Below, one piece after another: positions 646-52,265 of a stretch of 64,000 bases of DNA. The stretch is taken from the NCBI GenBank assembly GCA_016865865.1, contig VGOC01000005.1, positions 1,194 through 65,193 on the forward strand, read 5' to 3'. The notes under the pieces are model-generated. The model worked only from the letters and a program-made list of their open reading frames with translations. It did not search any database and had not been told where the DNA came from. Each line of letters starts with the position of its first letter. The first letter of the stretch is position 1. Origin of the DNA: Chloroflexota bacterium (GTDB lineage Bacteria; Chloroflexota; Anaerolineae; Anaerolineales; UBA11858). The position numbers and the translations under genes were made by a program.

Positions 646-1125
646 ATGGAATTAGATACCTCTCATGAACAACGCGAACTGATCCTCCTGGAGCAAATCG
701 AGGAAGACCCGGATGTAAGCCAGGCCACCTTAGCCGATCGTCTCGATGTCGCGGTTGGCACGGTGAATTGGCATATCAAACGATTGGTCAACAAAGGCTA
801 TATCAAGTTGAAGCGCGCTGAGCGCAAGAAGCTGCGCTATATTATCACCCCCGAGGGAATCGCCTTCCGGGCGCACCTGACTGTAAAATATATCGAGAAT
901 TCGATGCTGCTATTCCGTAGGACTCGCCGCCGTGTGAAGGATTTGTTGTCGGAAGTACGCGGCGACGGTTATGACCGCGTGCAAATTGTGGGAGATGGAG
1001 ATCTCGCCGAAGTGATCCGCCTGACCTGCATCGAGCAGGGGATCAGAGTTGATAATGACCCGGAGTTGCCTGTCTTGGAAGTCCGCGGCTGGAAAGTGTA
1101 TCTAAACAAGGACGGCAAGGCTTGA
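646..1125 (+). CDS. Winged-helix (MarR/Lrp-like HTH) transcriptional regulator with an uncharacterised C-terminal domain
   Basis: The sequence contains ...DVSQATLADRLDVAVGTVNWHIKRLVNKGYIKLKR..., a typical HTH plus wing. The ATG at 646 is preferred over the longer track ORF starting at 574. Confidence 0.7.
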   Translation: MELDTSHEQRELILLEQIEEDPDVSQATLADRLDVAVGTVNWHIKRLVNKGYIKLKRAERKKLRYIITPEGIAFRAHLTVKYIENSMLLFRRTRRRVKDLLSEVRGDGYDRVQIVGDGDLAEVIRLTCIEQGIRVDNDPELPVLEVRGWKVYLNKDGKA

Positions 1126-2138
1126 AAGCGGAACACCATGTCTTGATCACCGGAGGCGCGGGGTATGTTGGTTCGTTTCTGGCCGGTGAACTTCTCCGTC
1201 AGGGGTATTCTGTCACCGTTGTGGATGATTTGCTCTATGGCGGCGAATCGCTGATGTCCTGCCTACCTCACGCGAGTTTCCATTTCGTGAAATCCGATGT
1301 ATGGGAATCGCGCGCCATTCGCACAGCGGTGAGAGGGGATTGGCCTACCCCCCAGGCCGTGATCCATTTGGCCGCCCTGGCTGGATTCCCTGCCTGCCAG
1401 TCAGTAGGCAGATTGGTGGCCTGGCGATACAACGTCGAGGCCACGCAACATGTTTTCGAACAGGCCGAGGCGTTGGGCGTGGAACGGTTTATCTATTTAT
1501 CCTCTTATAGCAATTATGGCCTCTCCACTGATGGTAAACCGGTCACGGAAGAAACGCCTCTCGATCCCCAATCCTTGTATGCAGAAACCAAAGTCGCCTC
1601 CGAGCAATACTTGTTGTCCCAGGTTGGCGTCAGCCGCTGCGCACCTCTGATCTTCCGACCTGCGACCTTATATGGGCTTTCTCCCCGGCCGCGCTTCGAT
1701 CTCATCGTCAACCAGTTCGTCCTCGAGGCTTTCAGCAGGCGGAAACTGATGATCTATCAGCGTGGTTATCTGCGCTCATTCGTTCACATCGCAGATGCGG
1801 TTCATGGTATTATTTTGGGTCTTCGATTGCCCCTGGAGAAGGTTCGTGGGCAGGTGTATAACATTGGCGCGCCCGAAGGTAACCTGACGAAAGATCAGCT
1901 TGTCGAGCTGATTCTCAAGCGTCTGCCGGAAACCTTTGTGTATTACAAGGATATCACCTTTGGCGGCGATATGCGCGATATAACAGTGTCGTTCAACAAG
2001 ATTCAACATGAATTGGGCTTTACAGCTAAGTACTCTGTTGATGACGGCATCCGGGAAGTTTTGCGCGCCCTGCAGGATGGCCTCATCCGGGAGCCGGGCG
2101 ATCCGCGTTACCGCAACGCGCGTTTCATCGTGCAGTGA
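1122..2138 (+). CDS. NAD-dependent sugar epimerase/dehydratase (extended SDR family)
   Basis: Has the VLITGGAGYVGS Rossmann motif and YAETK (YxxxK). The TTG start at 1122 overlaps the upstream stop; GTG at 1140 is an alternative start. Confidence 0.8.
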   Translation: MKAEHHVLITGGAGYVGSFLAGELLRQGYSVTVVDDLLYGGESLMSCLPHASFHFVKSDVWESRAIRTAVRGDWPTPQAVIHLAALAGFPACQSVGRLVAWRYNVEATQHVFEQAEALGVERFIYLSSYSNYGLSTDGKPVTEETPLDPQSLYAETKVASEQYLLSQVGVSRCAPLIFRPATLYGLSPRPRFDLIVNQFVLEAFSRRKLMIYQRGYLRSFVHIADAVHGIILGLRLPLEKVRGQVYNIGAPEGNLTKDQLVELILKRLPETFVYYKDITFGGDMRDITVSFNKIQHELGFTAKYSVDDGIREVLRALQDGLIREPGDPRYRNARFIVQ

Positions 2139-2178
2139 AAACTAGGGAGAAGTTGATGAGTACAAAAAGGAAAATGAA

Positions 2179-3246
2179 ATGAAAAAAGCTTTGATTACAG
2201 GCATATCTGGCCAGGATGGCTCTTATCTGACGGAGTTGTTGTTGTCGAAAGGCTATCAGGTCCATGGCATGATCCGCCGGTCGAGCACATTCAACACAGG
2301 GCGCATCGATCATATTTACCGTGATCCGCATAATGGCAAAAAGGCCAGGATGCGCCTCCACTACGGAGATTTGGCCAGCTCCGATAGTTTGCAGAATATG
2401 ATCTCCGAAGTCGAGCCTGACGAGATTTACAATCTGGCGGCTCAGAGTCATGTGCGCGTGAGTTTCGACATGCCTGAATACACGGGTGATGTCACCGGGT
2501 TAGGGACTTTGCGCCTCCTGGAAGCTGTTCGGCGTATTGGGGCCGATGTCCGTTTTTACCAGGCGTCTACCAGCGAGATGTTTGGCGACGCTTTGCCTCC
2601 TCAGTCTGAGATGACCCCGTTTGCGCCGCAAAGCCCCTATGCGGCTGCCAAGACCTACGCCCACTGGGTCACGAAGAATTATCGTGATGGATACGGCATT
2701 TTTGCCTGCAGCGGTATCCTCTTCAACCACGAGTCCCCACGCAGGGGTGAGACATTCGTCACGCGCAAGATCACGCGCGCTGTCGCGGCGATCCTTGCCG
2801 GGAAACAGACACACCTCTATATGGGCAATCTGGACGCCAAACGGGATTGGGGGTACGCGCCGGAGTACGTCGAAGTGATGTGGCGGTTGTTGCAGCATGA
2901 TGAGCCAATGGATATTGTCATCGGCACCGGGGAATCTTACTCAGTGCGTGAATTTCTCGAGGAAGCTTTCGGCTACGTTGCCCTGGATTATCGGGATTAT
3001 GTGAAAATTGATAAGCACTACTTTCGTCCCACCGAGGTGGATTATCTGTTGGCAGATCCAGGCAAAGCTCGAACAGTTCTGGGCTGGGAGCCGAAAATCC
3101 GTTTCCATGATTTGGTGCGTATCATGATGGATGCTGACCTGGAATTGCAGGGGTTGGATGTTCCCGGGGAGGGCAAGCGCCTCCTGGCAGAACGCTTCGA
3201 TGGCTGGCACCGCTGGGAAGATCAAGTCGTTAGTATGGATAAGTGA
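2179..3246 (+). CDS. gmd: GDP-mannose 4,6-dehydratase
   Basis: [47 protein letters not shown]... and ...[21 protein letters not shown] are hallmark Gmd sequence. Confidence 0.93.
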
Positions 3247-3248
3247 TT

Positions 3249-4223
3249 ATGGCTGAAAAGACGTTCCCTAAACCGGAAGAATTCTGGGCCGATCGGCGGG
3301 TCTGTGTGACTGGGGGGGCAGGCTTCTTAGGCTCGTTCGTGCAGCGAGAACTGCGGGATCGAGGCGCTACTGAAGTCTTCATCCCTCATGTCGAACATTA
3401 CGATTTGACTTTGTTGGAAGATGTCCAGCGGGTCTTGAAAGATGCCAATCCTGATGTAATCATACACCTGGCGGCAATCGCGGGCGGTATCGGCGCTAAC
3501 CGCGCTCGCCCGGCCGAGTTCTTCTATAAAAACCTCATGATGGGCGTGCCGTTGATGCACGAAGCCTGGAAACAAGGTGTGGAGAAATTCGTCGCCATTG
3601 GCACGATCTGCGCCTATCCCAAATTTACGCCGATTCCTTTCAGGGAGGAAAACCTGTGGGATGGTTACCCCGAAGAGACCAATGCTCCTTATGGGTTGGC
3701 GAAAAAGATGCTCCTGGTTCAGGCTCAGGCCTACCGGGAGCAATACGGTTTCAATGCGATATATCTGCTCCCCGTGAATTTATATGGCCCGGGCGACAAT
3801 TTCAACCTGGAGACCTCTCACGTAGTTCCGGCGTTGATTCGCAAGATGATCGAGGCTCAGCAGCGCGGCGACTCCGAAGTTGTGTTATGGGGGGACGGTT
3901 CCCCCACGCGCGAGTTCTTCTACGCTGGCGATGCAGCCCGTGGCATCGTGATGGCAGCGGAGCGTTACAATAGCGCTGAGCCGGTCAACCTGGGATCGGG
4001 CATGGAAATCAGCATCAAAGATTTGGCTTCGTTGATTGCAGAGCTGACCGGCTTCGAGGGCGAAATCGTTTGGGATACCACCAAACCCAATGGCCAGCCG
4101 CGCCGCGGCCTGGATACCAGCCGGGCGAAGGAGTATTTCGGCTTCGAGGCGCAAATGCCCTTCGAAGAGGGGTTGCGGAGGACGATAGCGTGGTTTAGAG
4201 AGAATCAGGAGCGAATAGCGTAA
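3249..4223 (+). CDS. fcl: GDP-L-fucose synthase (GDP-4-keto-6-deoxymannose 3,5-epimerase/4-reductase)
   Basis: Has [18 protein letters not shown] and [24 protein letters not shown], and lies directly after gmd. The ATG at 3249 is preferred over GTG at 3243. Confidence 0.88.
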
Positions 4224-4273
4224 AACGTAAAACGTGATGAGTGATTCACGCTTCACGTTTTACACTTTACACG
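4219..4273. repeat. Period-7 degenerate tandem repeat forming an imperfect palindrome (AAACGTG/CACGTTT family)
   Basis: Reads cgtaaaa|cgtaaaa|cgtgatg|agtgatt|cacgctt|cacgttt|tacactt|tacacgg. The left half is the inverted complement of the right half. Confidence 0.75.
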
Positions 4274-4281
4274 GAAATCAA

Positions 4282-5139
4282 ATGACAGAGACTTCTCTTA
4301 CGACGAAAGCGGCCCCAGAGACGATCCTCCTGCGCCCCTCGCGCGGCTGGGCAGCCTTGAATTTAATGGATCTCTGGCGCTACAGAGAGTTGATCTACTT
4401 CCTCACCTGGCGCGATATCAAGGTGCTCTACAAACAGACTGTCCTAGGAGCCGCCTGGGCGATCTTGCGTCCCATCATTACGATGATCGTTTACGCGTTC
4501 ATTTTTGGGCAACTTGCCAACCTGGATTCTGAAGGAGTGCCGTATACGATCTTCACTTATGTGGCCTTGTTGCCCTGGCAGCTTTTCTCGAGAGCGATGA
4601 GCGAAACCGGGCGCTCGATGGTATCGAACCGCAATATGATTACGAAAATCTATTTTCCGCGTCTGGTCATCCCAGTTTCAACGATACTCAGCGGCATGGT
4701 GGATTTCTTTATCGCTTTTGTGATTTTGATCGGCATGATGTTCTATTACCAGATCAGCCCAACCCTTGCTATCTGGACTTTGCCGCTCTTCTTGTTATTG
4801 ACCTTGATAACAGCCTTAGGTGTTGGATTGTGGTTTTCTTCTTTGAATGTGCTGTACCGTGACATTGGTTATATCCTGCCATTTCTGACCGAGGTATGGA
4901 AGTACCTCACCCCGGTAGCCTATTCGGCTGGATATATCACGGGCGCGTGGAAAATCATCTATTCGATCAATCCGATGGCCGGGGTCGTGGAAGGATTCCG
5001 TTGGGCTTTATTAGGCATCGAACTGGACTCGTCCGCCTCGCTCACGATGTCCATTTCGATCGGTGTAGCCATTGTTGTGCTTATCAGCGGTTTATTCTAC
5101 TTCCGCCGCATGGAGCGAACTTTCGCGGATATGGTGTAG
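4282..5139 (+). CDS. wzm: ABC-2 type polysaccharide/O-antigen export permease
   Basis: Six hydrophobic spans and the typical N-terminal LWRYRELIYFLTWRDIKVLYKQTVLGAAWAILRP. The ATG at 4282 is preferred because 4234-4281 lies inside the heptamer repeat. Confidence 0.88.
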   Translation: MTETSLTTKAAPETILLRPSRGWAALNLMDLWRYRELIYFLTWRDIKVLYKQTVLGAAWAILRPIITMIVYAFIFGQLANLDSEGVPYTIFTYVALLPWQLFSRAMSETGRSMVSNRNMITKIYFPRLVIPVSTILSGMVDFFIAFVILIGMMFYYQISPTLAIWTLPLFLLLTLITALGVGLWFSSLNVLYRDIGYILPFLTEVWKYLTPVAYSAGYITGAWKIIYSINPMAGVVEGFRWALLGIELDSSASLTMSISIGVAIVVLISGLFYFRRMERTFADMV

Positions 5140-5172: not shown

Positions 5173-6459
5173 ATGACGGATTTAGCGATAAGAGTAAATG
5201 ACCTCGGCAAACAATACCGCATTGGGTTGGCTCCTGAGCGATATAAGACGCTGCGCGATTCTATCGTTGATGTGGTGACCTGGCCGCTTCAACGAATCCG
5301 CCGTGGGCTGGCTCCCTCGGGTGAGGACTATGCTGATACCATCTGGGCATTGCGCGATGTATCCTTCGAGGTCGAGCAAGGGAAAGTATTGGGGGTGATT
5401 GGGCGGAATGGGGCGGGCAAGAGCACGCTGCTCAAGATATTGTCGCGCGTTACCGAACCCACCGAAGGAGAAGTCGAGATCCGCGGCCGGGTTGGATCGC
5501 TCCTGGAAGTCGGCACAGGCTTTCACCCGGAATTGACTGGGCGCGAAAATATCTATCTCAATGGCGCTATTCTAGGGATGAAGCGCTCCGAGATAGACGG
5601 CAAATTCGATGAGATCGTTGACTTCTCCGGCGTCGAGCAATTTATAGATACCCCGGTCAAACGTTACTCTAGCGGCATGTATCTACGATTGGCTTTTGCG
5701 GTTGCAGCGCATTTGGAACCGGAAATCCTGGTGGTGGACGAGGTGCTGGCCGTCGGCGATGCCGAGTTTCAACGAAAATGCCTGGGGAAAATGAGCGACG
5801 TCGCTCAGGAAGGCCGCACAGTGCTATTCGTTAGCCATGATATGTCCGCGATTCTGCGCCTTACCGAAGAGGCCATCGTGCTGGATGATGGTCAACTGGT
5901 TTACCGCGCCCCTACCGTCGCGGCGGTGGATTATTATATGGTATCCGGATTCTCCGAGGCGGGGGAGCGCGTCTGGGATGATGATGAGATTCCAGAATCG
6001 GCTGCGCCCTTCCACCCCCTGGCTATGCGCGTGTGTAACTCGAATGGGCAGAATGTTGACGTAGTTCGCTCGACTGAGCCGATCAGCTTAGAGGTCGAGT
6101 ATCAACTGGCAGAACCCATCCACGGGCTGCGCGTCGGCCTCTACCTGATGAGCGCGCGCGGCGAATATGTCCTGACATCCTTCGATACCGATGAGCCGGA
6201 GCAGTATAACAACTATGGCGTCCGCCCTGCCGGTCACTTCCTCAGCCGTTGTACGATCCCGCCGGATTTGTTGAATGAAGGCCGATATACAGTGGGGGTG
6301 AACGCCAGCTCCTTCCGGGTGAAACGCTATTTCATGGATGAACGGGCTTTGACCTTCACAGTTGACGGCATGGGCGCGCCAGGGAAACAGTGGGCCGAAA
6401 CGCGCATGGGGCTGGTGAGGCCGCGCTTGAATTGGCAGATCGAGGCGGTAGAGAAATGA
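5173..6459 (+). CDS. wzt: Polysaccharide ABC exporter ATPase with a C-terminal Wzt_C-like carbohydrate-binding extension
   Basis: Walker [15 protein letters not shown], signature YSSGM and Walker [13 protein letters not shown]. About 170 extra C-terminal residues follow (..[30 protein letters not shown]..), which look beta-rich. Confidence 0.88.
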
Positions 6460-8081
6460 CGATGATTGGAAGCGAATCCTTGAAGAAGATTCTTGGCGAG
6501 TTTCCTGTTACCGCAGATCTCTACTGGCGGATTATGCAGCAGGCTGATCCTCCAGTGGGGGGGTACTTGCTTGACGACGTTCGGAAGCATCTGCCAACCT
6601 GGCTGGATCAAGCGCGGGCGGCAGAGGTGAAAAGCAATCACCCCAAACGCGTGCTGGTTTTCAGTGTGCTTCGATATTGGCTGGAACATAGCCTGCTCAT
6701 GAGCCTGGCACTGGTGGCTTTTGGACATGAGGTCACGCTGGCCTATTTACCGTATGCTCACTGGAAAAGACCCATCAATCGCTTCGACCTGCGCCGTCAG
6801 GATCTTTATATCAAAAGCATCATCAAGCAAATCGAACCCTTCGTAAGATTGGTCTCGATGCTGGATGCTCCGAAAGCCGACAGGCTGCCTGAAGCGATTA
6901 GCGACCAAATGGCGGCGGCAGCTTTCCGCGATACTCAATACAGTATGCTGCGGGAAGACATCGACACCGATGGCGAGATCTACCGATTGCGCCAGGAGCG
7001 CAACAACGATTATGCCCTGCGAATGTTGGCCTGGATGCAAAATGAACGCCCTGACGTGGTAGTCGTCCCGAATGGCAGCATCCTCGAATTTGGTATTACC
7101 TATCGTCTTGCCCGTTACCTAAACATCCCCGTGACGACCTACGAGTTTGGGGAACAAAACCACCGCATGTGGATGGCACAGAATAATGATGTGATGCGCC
7201 AGGACACCTCGGATTTATGGAATGCGCGCGGCGAGATACCATTGACTGACGTAGAAAAGGAACTGATCTATAATCTATTTTCGTCTCGCCAGGGAGCCAG
7301 TCTGTGGCATACCTTTGCCCGGCGATGGCAGGATGCGCCCAAAATCGGCGGCAGCGCAATACGGCAGGAGCTGGGCCTCGATTTGCGGCCTCTGGCATTA
7401 ATCCCGGCCAATGTGTTAGGCGATAGTCTGGTCCTCGGCCGGCAGCTATTTAGCGAGAGCAATACGGAGTGGTTGAAGCGCACAGTCGAATTCTTTATCG
7501 AGCATCCTGAGGCCCAGTTGGTTATTCGTGTTCACCCGGGAGAGCGCATAGGTTGGGGGTCCTCGGTCTATGAAATCTTAGTGCAACATTTTCAGGAATT
7601 CCCAGAAAATATCCACCTGCTCCCTGCGGAATCGAGCGTCAATACGTATGATTTGGTGGATGCCGCTGACTTTGGGCTGGTCTTCACCACAACCACCGGG
7701 ATGGAGATGGCCATGATCGGAAAACCAGTAATCGTTACGGGCCACACGCACTATCGCGGCAAGGGGTTCACGATTGATCCGAATACCTGGAAAGAGTACT
7801 TCGAAGCCTTGAAACAGGTGCTGTATGACCCCAAGGCTCACACTTTATCTGAAGGTCAGATCGAATTATCCTGGCGCTATGCTTATCGCTTTTTCTTCGA
7901 ATATCCTCAGCCTTTCCCCTGGCGAGTCCCCTATCTTTGGGAGAGCTTGAAGGAATGGAGCATGGCGCGGGTTCTCAGCCCAGAAGGACAGGCCCAATTT
8001 GGGAATACTTTTCGTTATCTGGTTGGCGAGCCGATTGATTGGGCTCGAAGTTATGTAGAAGGTCGGCTGACGAATGAGTGA
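6456..8081 (+). CDS. Capsule_synth-like (KpsC/KpsS-type) GT-B protein; candidate CMP-ulosonic-acid transferase
   Basis: Motifs [23 protein letters not shown] and [25 protein letters not shown] match the Q.xDS / HP / G.EA.l.gkPv pattern of KpsS/KpsC. The ATG at 6456 overlaps the wzt stop (ATGA). Confidence 0.6.
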
Positions 8082-9078
8082 TCATTTACGAGACCATCCT
8101 GTATTTTTATGTGGTTATCCCAGGTCTGGCACCTCCTTAGTGCGCGCGCTATTAGATGGCCATCCTCAGCTTGTCGTATATCCGTTCGAGACTTTCTTTT
8201 TCCGCGGCTTTCTCCCCCAGGCAGCCAGGCGTGACATGGATGGCAAGGTGGAGTTGGCCTCGAGGTACCTCCTTCAATTCGTTGGACTTCGCCACGAGAT
8301 GGAGGAGGATTATGAGCATTTCCATCCCAATGAGGATACCGTCCATGATTTTGCAAAAATGTGTCTCTCCATTCAGCGGCAAATTGCTGCCCATGGCTGC
8401 CGGCACGATGGGGACCTGCTCGCGGCATCAGTCCTGGCTTTTGGAGAAGTGTATGGCTTTCTCCATGAAAATACCCGTTGCTGGCTAGAGAAATCTGTTC
8501 ATAATGAATTCTTTGCAGAACAAATCTTTGGGTGGTGGCCTGAGGCTCGGTGCATTCATCTCATGCGAGATCCGCGCGATGTTTATTCATCGTATCATCC
8601 CAGGCGACAGAAGGTTCTACCCCGCCTGTTTTCGCTCCGTTGGGCGAGAAGCGCCCAAAAAGGGCTGGATAATCAACGGGTTTATGGGGAAGATCATTAT
8701 TACCTGATCGAATACGAACAACTGGCGCAAGACCCTGAAGCAGCTCTTCAGGGGTTGACCCATTTCTTAGGGATCGAAGATCATCCGATTTTACGAATTC
8801 CGTCTTCTATGGGGATTCCATGGGAAGGCAATTCGACCTTCGCAGACAAGTTCGCTGGTATTAGCGCCAGGCCTGTCGAAAGGTGGAGAAAAGAACTGGC
8901 TCGACATGATGTGCAGATCATCGAGCAGATTGCCAGACAACCCATGACAAAGTTGGGTTATCGGGTAGAAAATAAATGGTCATTGTCGACAAGTCTACGG
9001 ATACTGCGCGGGTTTCTCAGTTATTATCGTGATGCAATCGAAAAGATAGACCCGGCGGATATAGATGGTGTTGAATAG
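8074..9078 (+). CDS. Sulfotransferase
   Basis: A 5'-PSB-like loop FLCGYPRSGTSLV and a 3'-PB-like LMRDPRDVYSS. The start overlaps the upstream stop. Confidence 0.8.
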   Translation: MSDHLRDHPVFLCGYPRSGTSLVRALLDGHPQLVVYPFETFFFRGFLPQAARRDMDGKVELASRYLLQFVGLRHEMEEDYEHFHPNEDTVHDFAKMCLSIQRQIAAHGCRHDGDLLAASVLAFGEVYGFLHENTRCWLEKSVHNEFFAEQIFGWWPEARCIHLMRDPRDVYSSYHPRRQKVLPRLFSLRWARSAQKGLDNQRVYGEDHYYLIEYEQLAQDPEAALQGLTHFLGIEDHPILRIPSSMGIPWEGNSTFADKFAGISARPVERWRKELARHDVQIIEQIARQPMTKLGYRVENKWSLSTSLRILRGFLSYYRDAIEKIDPADIDGVE

Positions 9079-11019: not shown

Positions 11020-11108
11020 GTATGTTTGCCTTGTATACCTTGCTTACCTGCAGGCTCGATGTGACCTCTGGTTGAGTGAATTGGGTAAATAGTGAATACA
11101 AGGTAAAG

Positions 11109-12029: not shown

Positions 12030-12048
12030 GAATGCAGAGGTCAAAGAT

Positions 12049-44779: not shown

Positions 44780-45538
44780 ATGAAACGAAAAACTATGCTG
44801 ATCACTGGCGCGGCTGGAGGCATTGGCCGCGCAACGGTTGAGTTGTTTGCCAGGAAGGGCTGGCGTGTCATCGGCGTTGATCGCGCTCCCTTTGGGGATG
44901 GTTTCCCGGAGGATGGCTTGTTCATCCGAGCAGACATCTCGGATGGCTCAGCCCTGGAATCGATTTTCGAGCAAACGAAAAGCTTCACGAAAACCCTGGA
45001 TGCTTTGATCAACAATGCCGCCTATCAAATCACCAAGCCGTTGCTGGAGACCAGCGTGGAAGAATGGGATGCGGTGATGGCCTCGAATTTGCGCTCGGTA
45101 TTCTTGAGCGCCAAGCTGGCGTATCCGCTGTTGAAAAACCAAGGCGGCGGCGCGGTGGTCAATGTCTCGTCGGTTCATGCGGTGGCCACCTCGAAGGATA
45201 TCGCCGCCTACGCGGCCAGCAAAGGCGGGCTTCTGGCGTTGACCAGGGCTATGGCCATCGAATTCGCGCCAGATAACATCCGTGTGAACGCGATCCTGCC
45301 CGGGGCGGTGGATACGCCCATGCTGCGCGCCGGGATGAACCGCGATCACGCCGGCGCTGGCAGTGTGCAGGAGCGCCTGGACAATCTGGCCCGCAAGACG
45401 GTCAGCGGCAAGATCGGCACGCCCGAAGAGATTGCCCATGCGATCTATTTTCTGGCCGATGCGACTCAATCTTCCTTTATGACCGGGCAGGCCATGATCG
45501 TTGATGGGGGAGCGACGGCGCGATTGAGCACAGAATAG
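44780..45538 (+). CDS. Classical SDR-family oxidoreductase
   Basis: Has MLITGAAGGIGRAT, NNAA and YAASKGG. Confidence 0.85.
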   Translation: MKRKTMLITGAAGGIGRATVELFARKGWRVIGVDRAPFGDGFPEDGLFIRADISDGSALESIFEQTKSFTKTLDALINNAAYQITKPLLETSVEEWDAVMASNLRSVFLSAKLAYPLLKNQGGGAVVNVSSVHAVATSKDIAAYAASKGGLLALTRAMAIEFAPDNIRVNAILPGAVDTPMLRAGMNRDHAGAGSVQERLDNLARKTVSGKIGTPEEIAHAIYFLADATQSSFMTGQAMIVDGGATARLSTE

Positions 45539-45571: not shown

Positions 45572-46399
45572 ATGGCAGATTTAAGAAAAGCTATCAAAGG
45601 ATTGTTTCCTCCAGCGGTATGGGAGCCAATCAGCGAGGCGCGTTACACCATTCAGTATGCAGCCCAGTGGCCGGCGGCCACATTACACCCCTGGCGGCGG
45701 GAGAGCATCCGACGGCTGGCCGAATGGAAGGACAGATACAAAGGGGAGCGTTGTTTCATCATCGGCAATGGGCCAAGCCTGACGAACACCGACGTTTCGA
45801 AACTGGCGGGTGAGTATACCTTTGGGATGAACCGCATATATCTGGCCTTCCCCGAGTGGGGCTTCAAGACCACTTTTCTCGTCTCGGTCAACGACCTGGT
45901 TATCGAACAGTGCGTGGACGATTTTATCGCCCTGGATATTCCCAAATTCTTCTCCTGGCGCTCACGTCGGTTCTTTACCCAACCACCAATCCCTAATCAC
46001 CAATCACCGATCTTTCTCCACACCACCTACACCGGCCCAAAATTCGCTGCCGACGCCCGCGGCCGCCTGTGGGAGGGCGCGACTGTGACCTATGTCTGCC
46101 TGCAACTGGCCTTCTATCTGGGTTTCGAAAAGGTCATCTTGATCGGCGTGGATCATAGCTTTTCCAGCCAGGGCAAGCCGAATACGACTGTGGTCTCCTC
46201 TGGCGATGACCCGAATCATTTCGACCCCGGCTACTTCGGCAAGGGCTTCCGCTGGCAACTGCCTGATCTGGACACCTCAGAACGCGCCTATCGGATGGCA
46301 AGGGAGGTTTTCAAGTCGGCCAGGCGCCAGGTTCTGGATGCCACGATTGGGGGGAAATTGACTGTATTCCCAAAAATTGACTACGATACGTTGTTTTAG
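45572..46399 (+). CDS. DUF115 / MptE-like (Maf-type) protein; candidate CMP-nonulosonate transferase
   Basis: Has CFIIGNGPSLTNTDVSKL and VILIGVDHSF. The GNGPSL motif is shared with Campylobacter Maf proteins and GT42 sialyltransferases. A heptamer repeat segment lies at 45979-46013. Confidence 0.6.
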   Translation: MADLRKAIKGLFPPAVWEPISEARYTIQYAAQWPAATLHPWRRESIRRLAEWKDRYKGERCFIIGNGPSLTNTDVSKLAGEYTFGMNRIYLAFPEWGFKTTFLVSVNDLVIEQCVDDFIALDIPKFFSWRSRRFFTQPPIPNHQSPIFLHTTYTGPKFAADARGRLWEGATVTYVCLQLAFYLGFEKVILIGVDHSFSSQGKPNTTVVSSGDDPNHFDPGYFGKGFRWQLPDLDTSERAYRMAREVFKSARRQVLDATIGGKLTVFPKIDYDTLF

Positions 46400-46408: not shown

Positions 46409-47914
46409 ATGTTAGGCGGCCATAGTCCAGGTCACTCTAAATGGGCGTTGGGGATAGCAGGGGTCGTTGTTTTCACCTTCGGCCTGCTCGTCCGCCTAGT
46501 TGACCTGACTGATCCACCTTTGGATTTCAATCCTACCCGTCAACTGCGTTCGGCGATCATCGCCCGGGGCATGTATTACGGCAGCCAGCCCGAAGATGAC
46601 GCCTTGCATCGGCAGCTTGCGCTGACTCATTGGAAAATGATGGAACGATTGGAGCCGCCGCTATTGGAATGGGTAGTGGCTTCTACATATCGTTTGATCG
46701 GTGGAGAGCAAGTCTGGGCAGCGCGCATCTATACGATTTTCTTTTGGTTGATTGGCGGCGCGGCGCTGCATGATTTGGCGCGCCGAATGGCTTCTCCCTT
46801 GGGGGCGCTGGTGGGCGTTGGCTATTTTTTCTTCTTGCCTTTCAGCATCCTGGCCAGTCGTTCTTTTCAGCCAGACCCGGGCATGATTATGTTGATATTA
46901 TTGACGGGCTGGTCATTATGGCGATGGGCGGAGAAGCGCACCTGGCGATGGGCGCTTTTGGCGGGGGTCTTTGGCGGCGCGGCGGCCTTTGTCAAAGCCA
47001 TGGGTATCTTCTTTGTGGGGGGGATGGCTGCGGGAGTAGTTTTATACAATCTTGGGCTCGATGCTCAGGCATCCCTGATCACTGATTCGAAATGGCAGGT
47101 CAGGAACCTGAAATTTGGGCTTCGAGATCTCCAGGTTTGGGTCATGGCTGGACTGATGGTAACTCCGGCCTTACTCTATGCTGTGCTGGGGGCTGATGAA
47201 CAATCCTCGCCGCAAATCCTGCATTGGACAGTCTTGTCGCGCTGGCAGGATGTTTTGAGCCTGTCTTTCTATATGCGTTGGATGATCCGCGTCAGCAGCC
47301 TTATGGGGCCGGGCGTTGTCCTGGCCAGCTTTATCGGCGCGCTGCTGATTCCGCCCAAAAGCCGGGCATTGTTGTGGGGCTTTTGGATTGGATATGGCCT
47401 GTATGGCTTGACATTCCCCTACCATATCGCCACCCATGATTATTATCATCTGCCCCTTTTGGCCGTGGTATCGCTATCCCTCGCTGTACTGGCAGGCTTC
47501 ATTGCAGAAAAAGTGTGGGAGCAGGGCAGACTCACCCGTGTATTGTTCATCGTGGTGGCTCTGATCGCCGCGATCTACAACGGTTGGATTGGACGCTCGA
47601 TATTGGTTGGACAGGATTTCAGCCAGCATCCGGCGTATTGGCAGGAAATAGGGGATTCTTTTCCGGCGGATGCCAAAGCGGTTGGGGTGACGCAAGATTA
47701 TGGCTTTCGCCTGATGTATTACGGCTGGCGCACGATTAAGCTCTGGCCGTCAGGCGCCGGCAGCGAGAATTTCGAGGAGCAGGTTGGTGAGGCGGATTAT
47801 TTCGTCGTCACTGCCTTGAACCAGCTCGATTCCGATTTGAAAGAGTATCTCGCCGCCCAGTACCCCATCTATGCGGAGGGGATAGGGTATATCATTTATC
47901 ATCTGCGTCCCTGA
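46409..47914 (+). CDS. GT-C-like (ArnT/PMT_2-like) membrane glycosyltransferase, tandem paralog A
   Basis: 501 aa, polytopic, with LDFNPTRQLRSAIIARGMYY and SFQPDPGM. It is collinear with the next gene. Confidence 0.62.
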   Translation: MLGGHSPGHSKWALGIAGVVVFTFGLLVRLVDLTDPPLDFNPTRQLRSAIIARGMYYGSQPEDDALHRQLALTHWKMMERLEPPLLEWVVASTYRLIGGEQVWAARIYTIFFWLIGGAALHDLARRMASPLGALVGVGYFFFLPFSILASRSFQPDPGMIMLILLTGWSLWRWAEKRTWRWALLAGVFGGAAAFVKAMGIFFVGGMAAGVVLYNLGLDAQASLITDSKWQVRNLKFGLRDLQVWVMAGLMVTPALLYAVLGADEQSSPQILHWTVLSRWQDVLSLSFYMRWMIRVSSLMGPGVVLASFIGALLIPPKSRALLWGFWIGYGLYGLTFPYHIATHDYYHLPLLAVVSLSLAVLAGFIAEKVWEQGRLTRVLFIVVALIAAIYNGWIGRSILVGQDFSQHPAYWQEIGDSFPADAKAVGVTQDYGFRLMYYGWRTIKLWPSGAGSENFEEQVGEADYFVVTALNQLDSDLKEYLAAQYPIYAEGIGYIIYHLRP

Positions 47915-48018: not shown

Positions 48019-49530
48019 GTGGACCTGAACTCAGAGCGTTTTTTCGATCGAAAATGGTTATTGTGGGTAGTCGTTGGTCTGGCTTTCGTCCTGGGCCTGG
48101 GGATTCGCGCTTACGACATCACAGATCCACCTTTCGACTTCCACGCCACTCGACAACTCCGTGCGGCTGTGATCGCTCGAGGTATGTATTACCAGGGTCT
48201 GGAGGACGCCCCCGAATGGCAGCGTCAACAAGCCGATATGGCCTGGCATGAAGAAGCGATCATCGAACCGCCGGTGATGGAACGCCTGGCGGCCTGGGGT
48301 TATCAGTTGGCTGGCAGTGAACAATTATGGATACCGCGTTCATTATCGGCGATATTCTGGTGTCTTGCGGGATTGGCGGTATGGCTCCTGGGGCGAGAGT
48401 TAAGCGCCGCTGATGGCGGAGTACCGGCGATATTCTACTTTCTCTTTCTGCCTTATAGCATCTACGCCACGCGGACTTTTCAGCCAGACCCTTTGATGGT
48501 GTGCCTGATCGCCTGGTCGTTATGGGCTGTCTCTCGCTGGCATCGGGAGCGGACGACGCGGATGGCGATTGTTGCCGGAGTTTTGGGCGGCCTGGCGATC
48601 TTCGTCAAGACCGTGGCGATCTTTTTCGTGGGGGGAGCTTTCATTGGCCTCATCCTCTTGGGCGCAGGTTTGGCCAAAGCCATCCGGGATAAGCAGGTCT
48701 GGCTGATGGGACTCTTGACCATATTGCCCACCAGCCTGTTCTACGTTTACGGATTGTGGATTGCAGGTTTTCTTCAGCGACAACTCAGCTACCGCTTTTT
48801 CCCGAGTTTATGGTGTGACCCTGCTTTTTATATCCGCTGGCAGGAAATGGCTACGAACATCTGCGGTTATGGGACGTTGTTGGCCGCCCTCGCTGCCCTG
48901 TTTCTGGTTCGGGATAGAGGCAAACGAGGGTTTCTCGCTGGCCTGTGGATCGGATATGGTCTGTACAGTATGACCTTTGCATATCATACCCTGACGCATG
49001 ATTACTACCAACTCCCGTTGATCCTTGTCATTAGTGTATCGCTCATTGCAGTGGCTGCTGAACTTTTGAAAGCCATTGCCGCGATCGAGAAAGGTCTCTG
49101 GGTGCGTCTTTTTATTGTCTTATTGCTCTTTGCCGGGGCTGCTTTCAAGATATGGGATGTGCGCGTAAACCTCATCCGGGATGACTACCGCGGCGAGGCG
49201 GCTTTTTGGGAAAAAGTCGGCGGCCTGATCGAACCTGGGGCGCGGGTGCTGGCGATGAGCCAGACGTATGGAAATGCGCTGAGTTATTACGGCTGGACGC
49301 CGAATGATTCCTGGGCCAGCGAAGGCGATATCAATTTGCGAGTATTAGCAGGCGCGTCTGCAGAAGATATCGAACAAAGCAGCTATGCCGCCATAGAACA
49401 TTACGATTATTTCGTGATCACGAAAGTTGGAGAGTTCGACGATACGCCTGAACTCAAAGAACTACTGTATAATAACTATACTGTGTTTGCGGAGGGGGAG
49501 GATTATATTATTTTCGACCTTAGACCGTGA
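48019..49530 (+). CDS. GT-C-like membrane glycosyltransferase, tandem paralog B (GTG start)
   Basis: Has FDFHATRQLRAAVIARGMYY and TFQPDPLM. A ggagg RBS precedes the GTG. The C-terminus ..YIIFDLRP resembles ..YIIYHLRP in paralog A. Confidence 0.62.
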   Translation: MDLNSERFFDRKWLLWVVVGLAFVLGLGIRAYDITDPPFDFHATRQLRAAVIARGMYYQGLEDAPEWQRQQADMAWHEEAIIEPPVMERLAAWGYQLAGSEQLWIPRSLSAIFWCLAGLAVWLLGRELSAADGGVPAIFYFLFLPYSIYATRTFQPDPLMVCLIAWSLWAVSRWHRERTTRMAIVAGVLGGLAIFVKTVAIFFVGGAFIGLILLGAGLAKAIRDKQVWLMGLLTILPTSLFYVYGLWIAGFLQRQLSYRFFPSLWCDPAFYIRWQEMATNICGYGTLLAALAALFLVRDRGKRGFLAGLWIGYGLYSMTFAYHTLTHDYYQLPLILVISVSLIAVAAELLKAIAAIEKGLWVRLFIVLLLFAGAAFKIWDVRVNLIRDDYRGEAAFWEKVGGLIEPGARVLAMSQTYGNALSYYGWTPNDSWASEGDINLRVLAGASAEDIEQSSYAAIEHYDYFVITKVGEFDDTPELKELLYNNYTVFAEGEDYIIFDLRP

Positions 49531-49548
49531 GGTTATTTGCCCTACGCG

Positions 49549-51471
49549 ATGAAACCACTCGTTTCGATTGTCACTCCCTCTTATAACCAGTCCCAATATC
49601 TGGAAGACACCATTCGCTCGGTTTTGGCCCAGGATTACCCCAATATCGAATATGTCATCGTAGATGGAGGTTCCACCGACGGCAGTGTAGAGATCATCCA
49701 GAAATACGCCCATCGTCTCTCCTGGTGGGTCTCGGAGCCGGATAAAGGCCAGGCGGACGCCATCAACAAAGGGCTGAGACGGGCTCGCGGTGAGATCGTA
49801 GCCTGGTTGAACTCTGACGATGTCTATTTCCCAGACGCCATCTCTCAAGCTATGGATGCTTTTCAAGCCCACCCCGAGGTGGGGATGGTGTTTGGCAACG
49901 CCATCTCGATGGATTCCCAGGGCTACCCCCTCCATAACCAGGCTTTCGGAGATTGGGGCCTGGATGAGTTGATGTGTTACAACATCATCTGCCAGCCGGC
50001 TGTTTTCATGCGCAAGGAAGCCCTCCAGCAGGCTGGATTTTTGGATCAGTCTTACCACTATTTGCTGGATCACCACCTCTGGTTGCGCATCTTTGACATG
50101 GCTGGCGCGAAGCATGTCCCCTCGATCTGGGCTGGCGCCAGGCATCACCTCGAAGCCAAGAACGTGGCCAAGGCCGCCGAGTTTAGCGCGGAAGTGTTCA
50201 GGATTCTCGATTGGATCCAAGAACAGCCATCCCTCGAGGCGCGCACGAAGAAACTCAAACGCCGCATCCTGGGCGGCGCCTACAATATCAGCGGTCGGTA
50301 TTTGCTCGAAGGGGGCTTGCCAGGCCCGGCCGTCAAAGATTACTGGCGGGCGACTTTCAAAGACCCTACCCTCCTCAAATTCTATTGGCACCGGATGATC
50401 TATGCCTACCTCAGTCTGATGGGTTGGAGCGGCACAGCCGAATGGTATTACTCGCTGATGACCCATTTCCGGCCCGACGTGGGTGAGGATCCCCGCCTGA
50501 AGACCTGGCCAGGCATAAAGCTAGATGGCAGGAGCACCCCCATCCTGATTACCGGTGTGCATCGTTCTGGCACTACCTGGGTTGGCAGAATGATCGCCGC
50601 CAGCAGCGATGTCATCTATTTGAGCGAACCACTCAATATCTGGCACCGGCCCGGGGTGATGCGCACCCCCGTCGAGTACTGGTATCAATATATCTGTGAG
50701 GAAAACGAAAAGGCCTTCCTTCACGCCCTGCAGGACACTTTGGAGTATCGTTATCACTTCGGCACAGAACTGTTTTCCATCCGCTCGGTCAAGGATGCCG
50801 GGCGTATGGTGCGCGACATGGGGCGCTTCCTCAAGGGCAACCTCTCCCATGCCCGCCCCTTGCTCAAAGACCCCTTCGCCGTGTTTTCTAGCCCCTGGTT
50901 TTCCAAACGCCTGGGGTGCAAGATCGTCATTGTGGTTCGTCACCCCGTCGCCTTCGTCAGCAGCCTCAAACGCCTGGGCTGGACCTTCGACTTCAAAAAT
51001 ATATTAGATCAGACCTTGTTGATGCGCGACCACTTATCTGCGTATGAACAGGAAATGGAAAGGATGTTGGATTTCCCGGAGGATATTATTGGACAGGGAA
51101 GCCTGCTGTGGCGCATGGTTTATGATGTCGTGGATCGCTATCAGGTCACTCATCCGGAGTTTGTGGTGGTGAGGCATGAAGATATTTCTCTTCGCCCCCT
51201 GGCGGGATACCAGCAAATGTACCAGACTTTGGGGTTATCTTTTACCCCGTGGGTGCGCCGTTCGATCATGAGATCATCAGAAGGAAGTAACCCCTCCGAG
51301 CAGCCGCGCCAAAAAGAATTTTCGACCCAATTGGATAGCCGGGCTAACCTGTTGAATTGGCAGCATCGCCTCACCAGGGACGAAGTTGCCCGGGTGAAGG
51401 AGCTGACTTCTGACATCGCCGGAAAATTCTACACCGATGAAGAGTGGCAGCAGTGGACAGGCAGCTCCTAG
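49549..51471 (+). CDS. Fusion protein: GT2 glycosyltransferase plus a C-terminal sulfotransferase domain
   Basis: The N-terminus has [22 protein letters not shown] and [11 protein letters not shown]. The C-terminal part (about 50540 onward) has [18 protein letters not shown] and [13 protein letters not shown]. Confidence 0.75.
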
Positions 51472-52265
51472 TATCGGTTGTCACCCCCTCTTTCAATCAG
51501 GCCAAATATCTCGAAGCGACCATTCGCTCGGTATTGGAGCAGGGTTACCCGCACATCGAATATATCATCATTGATGGCGGCTCGACTGATGGCAGCGTCG
51601 AGATCATCCGCAAGTATGGTAAGCGATTGGCCTGGTGGGTCTCGGAACCCGACCAGGGTCAGACTGCGGCCATTAATAGAGGTTTTGCCCATGCCAGCGG
51701 AGAGATCTTCGCCTGGCTGAATTCAGACGATACGTACAATCCCAACGCTGTAGCCGAGGCCGTCGCTTTCTTGAGTGCGCACCCCGAGGTTGGCCTGGTA
51801 TATAGCGACGCCGACTTCATCGACTCCAACGGAGGGGTTGTGGGAAAATTCAACGCTCGACAGACCAGTTATCGGCGTTTGCGCCGCGGCGGGGTATACA
51901 TCCCTCAGCAGGCCGCTTTCTGGCGGGCGGATTTGTGGCGTCAAGTCGGCCCGTTGGATCCAAGCTATTATTTCGCGATGGATTACGATTTGTGGGTGCG
52001 GCTGGCAAGGGTATCGGATATTCGATATTATCCCGGCCACACCTGGGCTAACTTCCGCTTGCACGACGACGCCAAGACCATCGCCGCCGATGAACGCTGC
52101 TGGCCAGAGATGCTGCGCATCCACCGCCGCGATGGCGGAAGCTGGTTCTCGTGGATCTACCTGCGTTACTTTGCCCGCCGCGCCCTCTCCCCGCTGATCA
52201 AATGGCGGTTGCGCCGTAAATTTCGCACTCGGGGAACATATCGTCCAACGCCCCAGGCGCTATGA
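51444..52265 (+). CDS. GT2 glycosyltransferase, close paralog of the N-terminal domain of the preceding fusion
   Basis: Has [22 protein letters not shown] and [11 protein letters not shown]. The start is uncertain (GTG at 51444 or 51453). Confidence 0.8.

Follow-up and report, generated by a model that had tools for sequence, protein, structure and literature searches.

A conserved composite locus predicted to build a sulfated, nonulosonic-acid-containing cell-envelope glycan in Anaerolineales

Results

Gene Order and Boundaries of the Locus

We analysed a 64,000-nucleotide stretch of the genome of a Chloroflexota bacterium of the order Anaerolineales (assembly GCA_016865865.1, contig VGOC01000005.1, positions 1,194 to 65,193; hereafter the window), most of which is occupied by a locus whose genes point to the synthesis, sulfation, and export of a cell-envelope glycan. 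Between positions 574 and 52265 we find 46 close-packed open reading frames (ORFs), 45 of them on the + strand, which encode a 6-deoxyhexose pathway, an ABC exporter, two nonulosonic acid synthases, four sulfotransferase domains, and an embedded synthase for the sulfate donor, and whose order recurs in distant relatives. All ORFs of the window were searched with Pfam profiles, and key ORFs also with those of NCBIfam. Every enzyme family listed in a preliminary description of this DNA, made from the letters alone, was recovered by these profile (hidden Markov model) searches, by motifs, or by structure models.

That description had placed about 45 consecutive + strand genes at 1122-52265 as a single-strand island. 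The ORF list and gene table give 44 ORFs there, 43 on the + strand and one on the - strand (the count of 46 adds the MarR gene and a 100-residue ORF at the ends), so that the island is nearly but not wholly single-stranded, the exception being a conserved minus-strand gene for a membrane glycosyltransferase of the GT-C type (29026-30603). The overlapping stop and start codons that had been described can be read at 18 of the 43 same-strand junctions (overlaps of 1, 4, 8, or 11 nt; for example, ATGA at 6456 and 52262 and GTGA at 3243). Neither 1122 nor 52265 is a natural end, given that a MarR gene (574) heads the relatives' loci and that glycan genes resume after 52265. This first gene of the locus, a MarR/winged helix-turn-helix regulator (574-1125; HTH_24 1.8e-13; likely start near 646; features are on the + strand unless stated otherwise), has the same place ahead of SDR-GMD-Fcl-Wzm-Wzt in relatives. 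The GC content of the locus is 0.533.

Promoter and terminator scans of the window gave counts equal to the shuffled expectation and are uninformative on operon structure, and scans for Rfam families and tRNA genes returned no matches in the window. Two sites were singled out from the former scans: a promoter-like site at 581-608 (TTGACC, 16 nt, TATAAT; 11/12), which is the best sigma-70-like match of the window, precedes the likely MarR start by about 40 nt, and is a candidate promoter of the locus, and a terminator-like site at 32360-32379.

6-Deoxyhexose Genes and ABC Exporter

Three genes with a predicted role in the supply of an activated 6-deoxyhexose follow the regulator: a NAD-dependent sugar epimerase/reductase of the short-chain dehydrogenase/reductase (SDR) type (1122-2138; Epimerase 5e-38), for which no NCBIfam equivalog was reached, GDP-mannose 4,6-dehydratase (GMD; 2179-3246; PF16363 6e-139), and a GDP-L-fucose synthase-like enzyme (Fcl; 3243-4223), whose best NCBIfam match, GDPFucSynFcl, scores 303 bits against a cut-off of 500. 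The fucose predicted earlier depends on GMD together with this Fcl-like enzyme, whose score lies below the equivalog cut-off; the third member of the trio, the SDR at 1122-2138, could steer the intermediate toward a different 6-deoxyhexose. Six metagenome contigs carry an identical GMD, and in two of them this SDR gene is split into two ORFs of 108 and 219 residues (L001 4061-5077 and L003 787-1803, equivalent to window 1122-2138; L numbers are our labels for compared loci), which suggests that some members of the population have a frameshifted or inactivated allele.

The exporter consists of an ABC-2 permease (Wzm; 4234-5139; ABC2_membrane, PF01061 5.5e-18; at least four transmembrane segments) and an ATPase with a C-terminal carbohydrate-binding domain (Wzt; 5173-6459; ABC_tran, PF00005 4.5e-22). 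This domain, Wzt_C (3.5e-8; 34.0 bits, cut-off 30.4), is found in relatives too. The best solved relative of the ATPase is Wzt of A. aeolicus (5e-66), followed by TarH/TagH and Mycobacterium tuberculosis RfbE, that is, by exporters of O-antigen, teichoic acid, and galactan. Pfam and PDB matches thus bear out the Wzm/Wzt exporter of the preliminary description as a permease with a Wzt/TagH-type ATPase and Wzt_C. None of the 54 ORFs of the window has a Pfam match to a Wzx flippase or Wzy polymerase, which fits an ABC-transporter route, and the polysaccharide co-polymerase (PCP) and outer-membrane polysaccharide export (OPX) families are likewise without a Pfam match among window ORFs.

Sulfotransferases Paired with Transferases

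Four sulfotransferase domains are spread over the locus: ST1 (8074-9078; Sulfotransfer_3 2e-27), ST2 (26981-28024; Sulfotransfer_3 1e-23), ST3 (41166-42071; Sulfotransfer_1 7e-9), and ST4, which is part of a fusion with a family GT2 glycosyltransferase (49537-51471; Glycos_transf_2 8e-31; Sulfotransfer_3 1e-10, residues 334-623). All four, as predicted, score above the Pfam cut-offs and carry intact motifs for binding 3'-phosphoadenosine 5'-phosphosulfate (PAPS), namely the aligned 5'-phosphosulfate-binding ([RK]SGT) and 3'-phosphate-binding (RD) motifs. No profile search reassigned a sulfotransferase-like or NeuB-like ORF to an unrelated function. The donor would come from a bifunctional ATP sulfurylase/adenosine 5'-phosphosulfate kinase (32502-34229; PUA_2, ATP-sulfurylase, APS_kinase), whose 851 bits for the equivalog NF004040 (cut-off 669) leave the embedded PAPS synthase well founded and which has the same embedded place in at least 13 relatives. 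An exact-sequence look-up of this protein returned nothing, probably because the longest ORF begins with a TTG that is not called as the start. In a distant relative (L096 7882-9647) the embedded PAPS synthase is flanked by an anion permease of the TauE/SafE family, together with a universal stress protein; the permease may point to a transporter dedicated to sulfur anions, and at this place the window has the weak methyltransferase and SH3 lipoprotein instead.

Every sulfotransferase has a transferase as its partner: ST1 overlaps CapS1, ST2 overlaps unk481, and ST3 overlaps CapS2, by 8 nt in each case (at 8074, 26981, and 41166), while ST4 and its GT2 partner form a single fusion protein (49537). 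This regular pairing is the most distinctive feature of the locus and, because the sulfotransferases overlap or fuse with transferases, suggests that sulfation would take place in the cytoplasm, where PAPS is available, on the residue just added or a neighbour, before export. The fusion has about 100 full-length homologue clusters in Anaerolineales. Its AlphaFold2 (AF2) model (pLDDT 83.8) places the GT2 domain nearest the WrtF fucosyltransferase, K4CP, and SpsA, and all 50 of the Foldseek matches listed fell on this domain. We do not take the likeness to WrtF as a donor assignment; it is not specific, K4CP and SpsA being about as close.

Sequence does not reveal which acceptor a sulfotransferase uses, and the PDB matches of ST1, which is present in the closest relatives only, are all PAPS-dependent sulfotransferases, the closest being the sulfotransferase domains of polyketide synthases and protein-tyrosine sulfotransferases. 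The enzymes might then act on a lipid, a peptide, or a small metabolite, leaving the glycan acidic and unsulfated. We consider this highly improbable: the window holds no polyketide synthase, nonribosomal peptide synthetase, or lipid-biosynthesis genes, three of the sulfotransferase genes overlap the stop codons of glycosyltransferase-like genes, and the fusion of the fourth to GT2 is the arrangement kept in the homologue clusters just mentioned. Sulfation of the glycan itself remains our reading of these genes.

Nonulosonic Acid Modules

The first module starts with PseB, an inverting UDP-GlcNAc 4,6-dehydratase (9997-11019; TIGR03589 493 bits, cut-off 408), and continues with an RmlD-like 4-ketoreductase (11076-12029; RmlD_sub_bind 5e-59) and the nonulosonic acid synthase NeuB1 (12019-13131; NeuB 9e-63 plus SAF; best PDB match SpsE), which reaches the equivalog level neither for NeuB nor for PseI (220 bits for the latter, cut-off 340). 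Past a GT4 gene follow an AAC(3)-like N-acyltransferase of the Cj1296/7 type (14517-15287; Antibiotic_NAT 5e-49), a DUF4910/DUF2172 metallopeptidase-like protein of the Cj1295/CA_C2195 type (15304-16620; DUF4910 7e-50), the cytidylyltransferase CTP1 (16620-17483; CTP_transf_3 3.5e-34), and unk310 (17467-18399), a conserved 310-residue protein that has no Pfam or NCBIfam match and is always found beside CTP1, its relatives being 46-76% identical and in the same place. The second module comprises an SDR oxidoreductase (34241-35062; adh_short_C2 7e-51; best NCBIfam match PRK09186), the adjacent PseF-like cytidylyltransferase CTP2 (35047-35823; PseF 157 bits, cut-off 206), and NeuB2, a synthase fused to a xylose-isomerase-like TIM barrel (35886-37775; NeuB 7e-85, SAF, AP_endonuc_2 1e-25) that matches Neisseria meningitidis NeuB at 9e-54 and scores 354 bits for the NeuB equivalog (cut-off 400). 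Farther downstream lie a third cytidylyltransferase, CTP3 (43050-43718; CTP_transf_3 1.5e-25), a D-2-hydroxyacid dehydrogenase of the glycerate/phosphoglycerate type (43790-44749; 2-Hacid_dh_C 7e-58), whose NCBIfam matches to PGDH and glyoxylate/hydroxypyruvate reductases are all below cut-off, and a further SDR oxidoreductase (44780-45538; adh_short_C2 3.5e-55). Matches to the Pfam families NeuB and CTP_transf_3 thus support the two NeuB-type synthases and three cytidylyltransferases reported earlier.

Judged by its genes, the pathway to the first nonulosonic acid is non-canonical, with the RmlD-like reductase and the AAC3-like/DUF4910 pair present in place of PseC, PseH, and PseG. The sugar may be without a 7-amino group, since the RmlD-like reductase comes after PseB, or the missing steps may be encoded elsewhere. 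In Campylobacter jejuni, Cj1295 and Cj1296/7 adjoin pseB and are required for 5-N-(methylglyceroyl) pseudaminic acid (PMC3068675 and PMC4000134, cited for the Cj1295/CA_C2195 type), and the CA_C2195 structure paper reports the same gene neighbourhood. By analogy, the pair suggests N-acyl remodelling of the nonulosonic acid. In a pseB/neuB context the pair recurs in Anaerolineales, Solirubrobacterales, and Conexibacteraceae.

Some further observations on these modules were made in relatives. The NeuB2-TIM-barrel fusion is kept in a distant relative (L096 2385-4268); the nearest solved relative of the barrel is the uncharacterised MJ1311, and supply or isomerisation of a sugar substrate would be one possibility for its role. 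Five loci of Actinomycetota (L035, L037, and L039-L041; metagenome-assembled genomes, MAGs, of Solirubrobacterales/Conexibacteraceae, and one labelled Bifidobacterium breve, L037, a label that looks doubtful) contain the AAC3-like/DUF4910 pair with PseB and CTP_transf_3, and most of them a NeuB (no match in L040); a CapS-like gene is present in four of the five (not L035), and a sulfotransferase lies near none of them. Three loci of Verrucomicrobiota (L083, L084, and L087) have the pair without the rest of the locus. In another distant relative, L095 (19444-20055), a NUDIX hydrolase that has no equivalent in the window stands between GT4 and the AAC3-like gene; this enzyme could hydrolyse the nucleotide sugar, a step seemingly lacking from the window pathway.

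Candidate Ulosonic Acid Transferases

Two of the proteins paired with sulfotransferases, CapS1 (6456-8081; Capsule_synth 9.5e-8) and CapS2 (39518-41173; Capsule_synth 3.5e-7), are divergent KpsC/KpsS-like GT-B enzymes, with 32.3 and 30.4 bits for PF05159 (cut-off 20). The CapS family profile matches a KpsC-specific C-terminal motif of 46 residues at about 50% identity (4e-5), and the AF2 model of CapS1 (pLDDT 84.5) has a GT-B fold for which KpsC is the best locally superposed Foldseek match (TM score 0.52, root-mean-square deviation 6 Å). KpsC, the founding member of GT107 (retaining beta-Kdo transferases), has an invariant QxxxD motif, with Asp as nucleophile, and an HP motif (PMC10148158). 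Both CapS proteins keep the HP motif (H360-P361) and, in a register set by eye, an invariant Asp (D323 in CapS1) at the position of the KpsC nucleophile, and their first residue is N rather than Q ("PANVLGD", "FTNVVFD"), giving NxxxD. No KdsA is encoded in the window, and the donors on offer are NeuB-type products. We regard CapS1 and CapS2, as distant relatives of KpsC, as candidate CMP-ulosonic acid transferases.

By Foldseek E-value the top matches of the CapS1 model are UDP-GlcNAc 2-epimerases, including NeuC, which are globally as good as KpsC; no NeuC or PseG is recognisable in the locus, and each CapS gene lies near a NeuB module. These proteins could thus be the missing NeuC/PseG-like hydrolysing 2-epimerase/nucleotidase of the two nonulosonic acid pathways. 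We judge this improbable on the motif evidence: the epimerase superpositions are globally poor (TM score about 0.3, 12-16 Å, against the values for KpsC given above), the sole sequence matches are to Capsule_synth and KpsC, including the 46-residue motif, and the HP motif and the Asp at the nucleophile position are invariant.

Besides these KpsC-like candidates, the partner of ST2, unk481 (25543-26988), is a GT-B protein whose HP motif falls in register with that of the CapS1 C-terminal domain (hhalign probability 82%). It matches the BFO_1060 family weakly (2e-7; 30 bits, cut-off 200) and Glyphos_transf at 0.006; members of the BFO_1060 family are genetically proven transferases of pseudaminic (Pse) or legionaminic (Leg) acid in Tannerella forsythia, and the BFO_1060/TagB-like unk481 is a candidate nonulosonic acid transferase. 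So is the MptE-like protein (DUF115/Maf type; 45572-46399; PF01973 1.3e-11), which had no significant match among PDB sequences and which brings the candidate ulosonic acid transferases to four.

Conservation across Anaerolineales

Exact copies of GMD with the same surrounding gene order occur on lake-metagenome contigs; JGI 3300020109 and 3300020084 are among the lake data sets with exact copies. Named homologues of the GT2-sulfotransferase fusion, CapS1, and the minus-strand protein all come from Anaerolineae, Anaerolineales, or Chloroflexota MAGs but for one, which bears the label Candidatus Hodarchaeales. With the DUF4910 protein as anchor, we scanned 185,579 species genomes and obtained 80 loci from species-representative genomes, 72 of them from Chloroflexota, onto which all window proteins were mapped by tblastn; the best match is an Anaerolineales MAG at 83% identity. 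The search for syntenic loci that had been proposed thus found the same order in dozens of species-level genomes, collinear among Anaerolineales species at 45-80% protein identity. Among the 45 Chloroflexota loci of at least 15 kb, 38 contain a sulfotransferase and 31 a sulfotransferase, a NeuB, and a CapS together.

Two paralogous AAC3-like/DUF4910 pairs mark the two halves of one collinear arrangement. The 5' half reads MarR, SDR, GMD, Fcl, Wzm, Wzt, CapS1, a methyltransferase, PseB, RmlD-like reductase, NeuB1, GT4, AAC3, DUF4910, CTP1, unk310, a methyltransferase, GT2, unk481, ST2, and GFO; the opposite-strand GT-C stands between the halves; and the 3' half reads PAPS synthase, SDR, CTP2, NeuB2 fusion, CapS2, (AAC3', DUF4910'), ST, ST3, GT2d, CTP3, 2-hydroxyacid dehydrogenase, SDR, MptE-like, PMT_2, GT2-sulfotransferase fusion, and GT2e. 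In a distant relative (56-62% identity), a single 206-kb contig carries this entire order over 41 kb, including the exporter, both NeuB modules, the embedded PAPS synthase, and the opposite-strand GT-C, and in compact versions (L033, L038, and L026) the exporter module is joined directly to downstream modules. The window's own additions are ST1, the GT2a-GT2b-742-residue block, MT3, the pair of MT4 and the SH3 lipoprotein, and two extra PMT_2 genes, and some of them coincide with patches of lower GC. Because the gene order is collinear in distant relatives, we treat the region, on the evidence of synteny, as one conserved composite locus with a long history of co-inheritance as a unit; clustering by chance, which the preliminary description had offered as a simpler explanation, is rejected by collinearity at about 55-60% protein identity in distant Anaerolineales.

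Chloroflexota are considered monoderm, without LPS (lipopolysaccharide) and BAM genes, and their outer layers are described as "of polysaccharides or proteins", of unknown make-up. The product is not an O-antigen because the host belongs to these monoderm bacteria without LPS genes; of the envelope, sheath, or S-layer glycan suggested before, a wall, sheath, or S-layer location remains a fair guess.

Other Genes of the Locus

Four methyltransferases had been counted. Three S-adenosylmethionine (SAM)-dependent enzymes are clear, MT1 (9094-9996; Methyltransf_11 1.8e-16), MT2 (18392-19276; Methyltransf_23 4.5e-20), and MT3 (24521-25372; Methyltransf_23 3e-12), and the fourth, MT4 (30661-31416), is weak (E 2.7e-4, below gathering score). 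MT4 forms a lineage-specific pair with a putative lipoprotein (31406-32329) that matches SH3 weakly; the pair (30661-32329) has a GC content of 0.488 and is not found at this position in relatives, its sole homologue being one SH3-protein match (48% identity) at a different place in L020. The methylation of the glycan proposed earlier is upheld as to the enzymes, and its target may be the N-acyl (glyceroyl) group rather than a sugar hydroxyl: some of the methyltransferases may act on the acyl group, because the locus contains the Cj1295/Cj1296-type pair and a glycerate-type dehydrogenase.

The GT2, GT4, and several GT-C proteins announced in the preliminary description amount to six GT2, one GT4, and three PMT_2 proteins. 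GT4 (13204-14361; Glycos_transf_1 2.8e-22) lies in the first nonulosonic acid module. GT2a (19280-20224; Glycos_transf_2) and GT2b (20224-21258; Glycos_transf_2) form with a 742-residue membrane protein of 11 transmembrane segments (21251-23440), for which the family search gave no match, a lineage-specific insert (19280-23440); the block as such was found in L013 only, whereas L024 and L026-L028 have just the GT2a-like gene. GT2c (23537-24496; Glycos_transf_2 4e-14) follows it, GT2d (42049-43020; Glycos_transf_2 7e-26) is a soluble GT-A enzyme with PDB matches, and GT2e (51444-52265; Glycos_transf_2 2.5e-29) is a paralogue of the GT2 domain of the fusion (49% identity). Since GT2d and GT2e have no transmembrane segments, and their better matches are to chain-building GT-A enzymes of the soluble kind rather than to ArnC or dolichyl-phosphate mannose synthase (DPMS), we set aside a role for them as polyprenyl-phosphate-sugar synthases feeding the GT-C proteins. 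A Gfo/Idh/MocA sugar oxidoreductase (28028-29029; three GFO_IDH_MocA domains) precedes the minus-strand gene.

The three PMT_2 proteins (37768-39354, PMT_2 5e-12, 8 transmembrane segments; 46409-47914, 8e-15; 48019-49530, 6.5e-15) score 46.8-56.1 bits against a cut-off of 26.1 and have 6-8 predicted transmembrane segments; those at 46409 and 48019 are paralogues, 37.5% identical. The minus-strand protein (29026-30603, -; 525 residues, at least 7 transmembrane segments) has a weak PMT_2 match of its own (0.058) and is assigned to that family only via its homologues, which are widespread in Chloroflexota and in many cases carry PMT_2 (PF13231). We take this ORF for a real gene because its homologues (52-76% identity) keep the same position and strand in relatives. 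Alignment with hhalign of unk310, the 742-residue protein, the minus-strand protein, the MptE-like protein, and MT4 against all window families reached 15% probability in no case.

Downstream Continuation

Glycan genes continue at 54739-63424 up to a second Wzm/Wzt pair, with a 1243-residue methyltransferase/GT4/GT4 giant (54739-58470), a 713-residue GT-C (58555-60696), Wzm2 (61679-62506), and Wzt2 (62645-63424; 259 residues, no Wzt_C match). In L093 (81% identity), GT2e is followed directly by the methyltransferase/GT4 giant, the GT-C, the second Wzm/Wzt, and more GT4 genes. The continuation is interrupted in the window by only a restriction-modification pair and a PIN gene. The former (52632-54260; GC 0.446), absent from L093, consists of a ThaI-like endonuclease, whose reading frame is broken by an in-frame stop near 53109-53111, and an intact N4/N6 DNA methyltransferase, and is an insertion foreign to the glycan system; L081 and L089 have homologues of this methyltransferase (71-77% identity) at another point of the locus, between GT2d and CTP3. 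The PIN-domain gene (60748-61242, -) lies between the GT-C and Wzm2 and is likewise absent at this place in L093. On its gene content, the Wzm2/Wzt2 pair would show that this part of the chromosome gives rise to more than one exported polymer.

A Single Glycan Locus or Several

We read the genes at 574-52265 as one conserved composite cell-envelope glycan locus, with a probability of roughly 0.6. Gene identities come from the searches, and the individual steps and substrates, like the product and its chemistry, we infer from the genes. Several observations weigh against this reading. As to chain assembly, no initiating polyprenyl-phosphate transferase (Glycos_transf_4 or Bac_transf) is matched in the window, Pfam finds no LCP ligase or Wzy_C protein there, and no GtrB/DPM1-type polyprenyl-phosphate-sugar synthase to feed the GT-C proteins is evident in the window. 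As to the nonulosonic acids, neither NeuB nor any of the three cytidylyltransferases reaches an NCBIfam equivalog cut-off, and the window has no Pfam match for a PseC (DegT-type) aminotransferase, a PseH GNAT, or PseG/NeuC (Glyco_tran_28_C/Epimerase_2); the epimerase-like Foldseek matches of CapS1 and the N in place of the invariant Q of KpsC, set out above, count on the same side. As to unity, the locus has several gaps of 150-170 nt between genes, which together with the opposite-strand gene (29026-30603) imply at least two transcription units, module content varies among species, and a second Wzm/Wzt pair lies downstream. In Escherichia coli, wecA is encoded elsewhere, and the initiator here may likewise lie outside the window.

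Relatives at a greater distance end the locus with a 250-residue protein, a Wzy_C protein, and one or two InhA-like_MAM proteins (L007 13376-16860; L009 13400-19020), of which the window has no homologue; Wzy_C (O-antigen ligase/oligosaccharyltransferase-like) and InhA-like_MAM are possible candidates for ligase and acceptor.

It is possible, if on balance unlikely, that two or more separate glycoconjugate pathways are kept side by side, for example an ABC-exported wall polysaccharide in the 5' half, a protein-glycosylation or wall-decoration pathway in the 3' half (MptE/Maf-like, GT-C, and GT2-sulfotransferase proteins), and a third polymer with Wzm2/Wzt2. The opposite-strand gene splits the array, the second exporter has its own methyltransferase-GT4 giant and GT-C (54739-63424), the more distant relatives end in Wzy_C and InhA-like_MAM proteins instead, and modules are gained and lost independently (L038 is without the NeuB2 module, L074-L078 without PAPS synthase and ST3), with ST1 confined to close relatives. 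The three cytidylyltransferases also suit several pathways, as do Maf-type proteins, which are reported to be protein-directed nonulosonic acid transferases. Against such a division, even distantly related loci keep the order of the modules and have the exporter invariably at the 5' end, 574-52265 contains no further exporter, the compact loci L038 and L026 join the exporter module directly to that of CapS2-ST3-GT2d-CTP3, and the PAPS synthase sits between two halves that both have sulfotransferases.

Discussion

If the region is a single composite glycan locus, its genes outline the following route. GDP-6-deoxyhexose, probably GDP-L-fucose, would be formed in the cytoplasm by GMD, the Fcl-like enzyme, and the extra SDR, and PAPS by the embedded bifunctional synthase. 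A first CMP-nonulosonic acid would come from PseB, the RmlD-like reductase, NeuB1, and CTP1, its N-acyl group being remodelled by the DUF4910 and AAC3-like proteins; a second from the NeuB2-TIM-barrel fusion, SDR, and CTP2; and a third CMP-activated acid or derivative from CTP3, the glycerate-type dehydrogenase, and SDR. Soluble GT2 and GT4 enzymes would assemble the chain at the inner membrane face, on a carrier lipid, with ulosonic acids added by CapS1, CapS2, unk481, and the Maf-like protein, while the four soluble PAPS-dependent sulfotransferases would act on each newly added residue or its neighbour ahead of export and SAM methyltransferases would modify sugars or an acyl group. Wzm/Wzt would then export the finished chain, the C-terminal domain of Wzt recognising a terminal residue that is plausibly made by the genes just downstream of wzt (CapS1, ST1, and MT1), and outside the membrane the GT-C (PMT_2) proteins may decorate the glycan or attach it to the wall or the protein that finally accepts it.

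Extending this route to the order, we put forward as a tentative and rather doubtful proposal that Anaerolineales, and with them much of the Chloroflexota of the environment and of wastewater, may bear a conserved polymer whose nonulosonic residues, or their neighbours, are O-sulfated by transferase-coupled sulfotransferases. If true, such a polymer would be a bacterial counterpart of the sulfated sialoglycans of animals, and it could be the unidentified outer envelope layer of these monoderm filaments. It might, in addition, contribute to the "sialylated and sulfated" polymers in the extracellular polymeric substances (EPS) of granular sludge, in which nonulosonic acids and sulfated glycoconjugates have been detected and for which the producers, the responsible sulfotransferases, and the pathways have not been found (PMC10483923); the families of the locus could serve as search models for this material. 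Bacterial sulfated glycans are considered rare, and the locus would provide an order-wide genetic basis for them in another phylum, with its own PAPS supply and a widespread GT2-sulfotransferase fusion. As a large, conserved, exporter-driven locus it is a concrete candidate for the outer layer of Chloroflexota, a question that thereby becomes testable, and its NxxxD KpsC-like proteins and paired transferase and sulfotransferase genes are candidates for the transfer and modification of nonulosonic acids.

By its genes the locus would work like a surface-glycan system that depends on an ABC transporter, as do O-polysaccharides of the O9a/O12 type, group 2 capsules, and teichoic acid export, and it takes in nonulosonic acid modules resembling those of the Campylobacter and Tannerella glycosylation islands. 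ABC-dependent O-polysaccharides (E. coli O9a, and Klebsiella O12/Raoultella terrigena with the WbbB beta-Kdo terminator) have in common with the locus Wzm and Wzt_C, the lack of Wzx/Wzy, cytoplasmic assembly by soluble glycosyltransferases, and a KpsC/WbbB-superfamily candidate and a methyltransferase right after wzt. Here, however, the host is without an outer membrane or LPS genes, two NeuB modules take the place of Kdo, the locus also encodes four sulfotransferases, a PAPS synthase, and several GT-C proteins, and the terminator role of CapS1, ST1, and MT1 is a predicted one. Group 2 capsules (KpsMT, KpsC/KpsS, GT107) likewise combine an ABC exporter with a Capsule_synth GT-B enzyme bearing HP and Asp and an acidic polymer, whereas CapS1 and CapS2 are single-module proteins of about 540 residues with NxxxD, not QxxxD, and a KpsC match of only 3e-5, and KpsD/E and KdsA are absent from a locus that belongs to a monoderm host.

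Other systems resemble the locus in its nonulosonic acid genes. The flagellin island of C. jejuni (pseB, neuB, ptm, maf, Cj1295, Cj1296/7) also has PseB, NeuB, CTP_transf_3 with an adjacent SDR, a Maf/DUF115-type protein, and the DUF2172/DUF4910 and Antibiotic_NAT pair, which there is tied to 5-N-(di-O-methylglyceroyl) pseudaminic acid. Unlike that island, the locus has no flagellin context, PseC, PseH, or PseG, and is an exporter-driven polymer locus with sulfation. The S-layer O-glycan of T. forsythia ends in Pse5Am7Gra or a Leg derivative added by transferases of the Tanf_01245/BFO_1060 family; unk481 has its weak BFO_1060 match and HP motif in common with these, and N-glyceroylation of the nonulosonic acid parallels the glycerate-type dehydrogenase, but the match is 30 bits against 200, and the T. 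forsythia system is not ABC-exported, with no sulfate reported in its paper.

For sulfation, a bacterial comparison is the synechan (xss) locus of Synechocystis, which reportedly follows a Wzx/Wzy-type route and has no nonulosonic acid genes. In contrast, the locus described here has Wzm/Wzt, an embedded PAPS synthase, and sulfotransferases coupled or fused to glycosyltransferases, and no Wzx, Wzy, PCP, or OPX in the window. The two have in common that dedicated sulfotransferases form part of a bacterial glycan locus, and the 2021 synechan paper describes sulfated EPS as unique to cyanobacteria among bacteria (PMC8205485). In Halobacterium salinarum, according to PMC11980604, dedicated sulfotransferases modify sugars of a lipid-linked surface glycan before its transfer, as we propose here, but within archaeal N-glycosylation of a short tetrasaccharide and with no such ABC exporter locus. 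All enzymes of the Anaerolineales locus belong to known families, and, as had been stated in advance, we found no locus of this combination described in the bacterial literature; it is set apart from the known systems by its monoderm Chloroflexota host, its built-in PAPS supply, its four coupled sulfotransferases, and its number of GT-C proteins.

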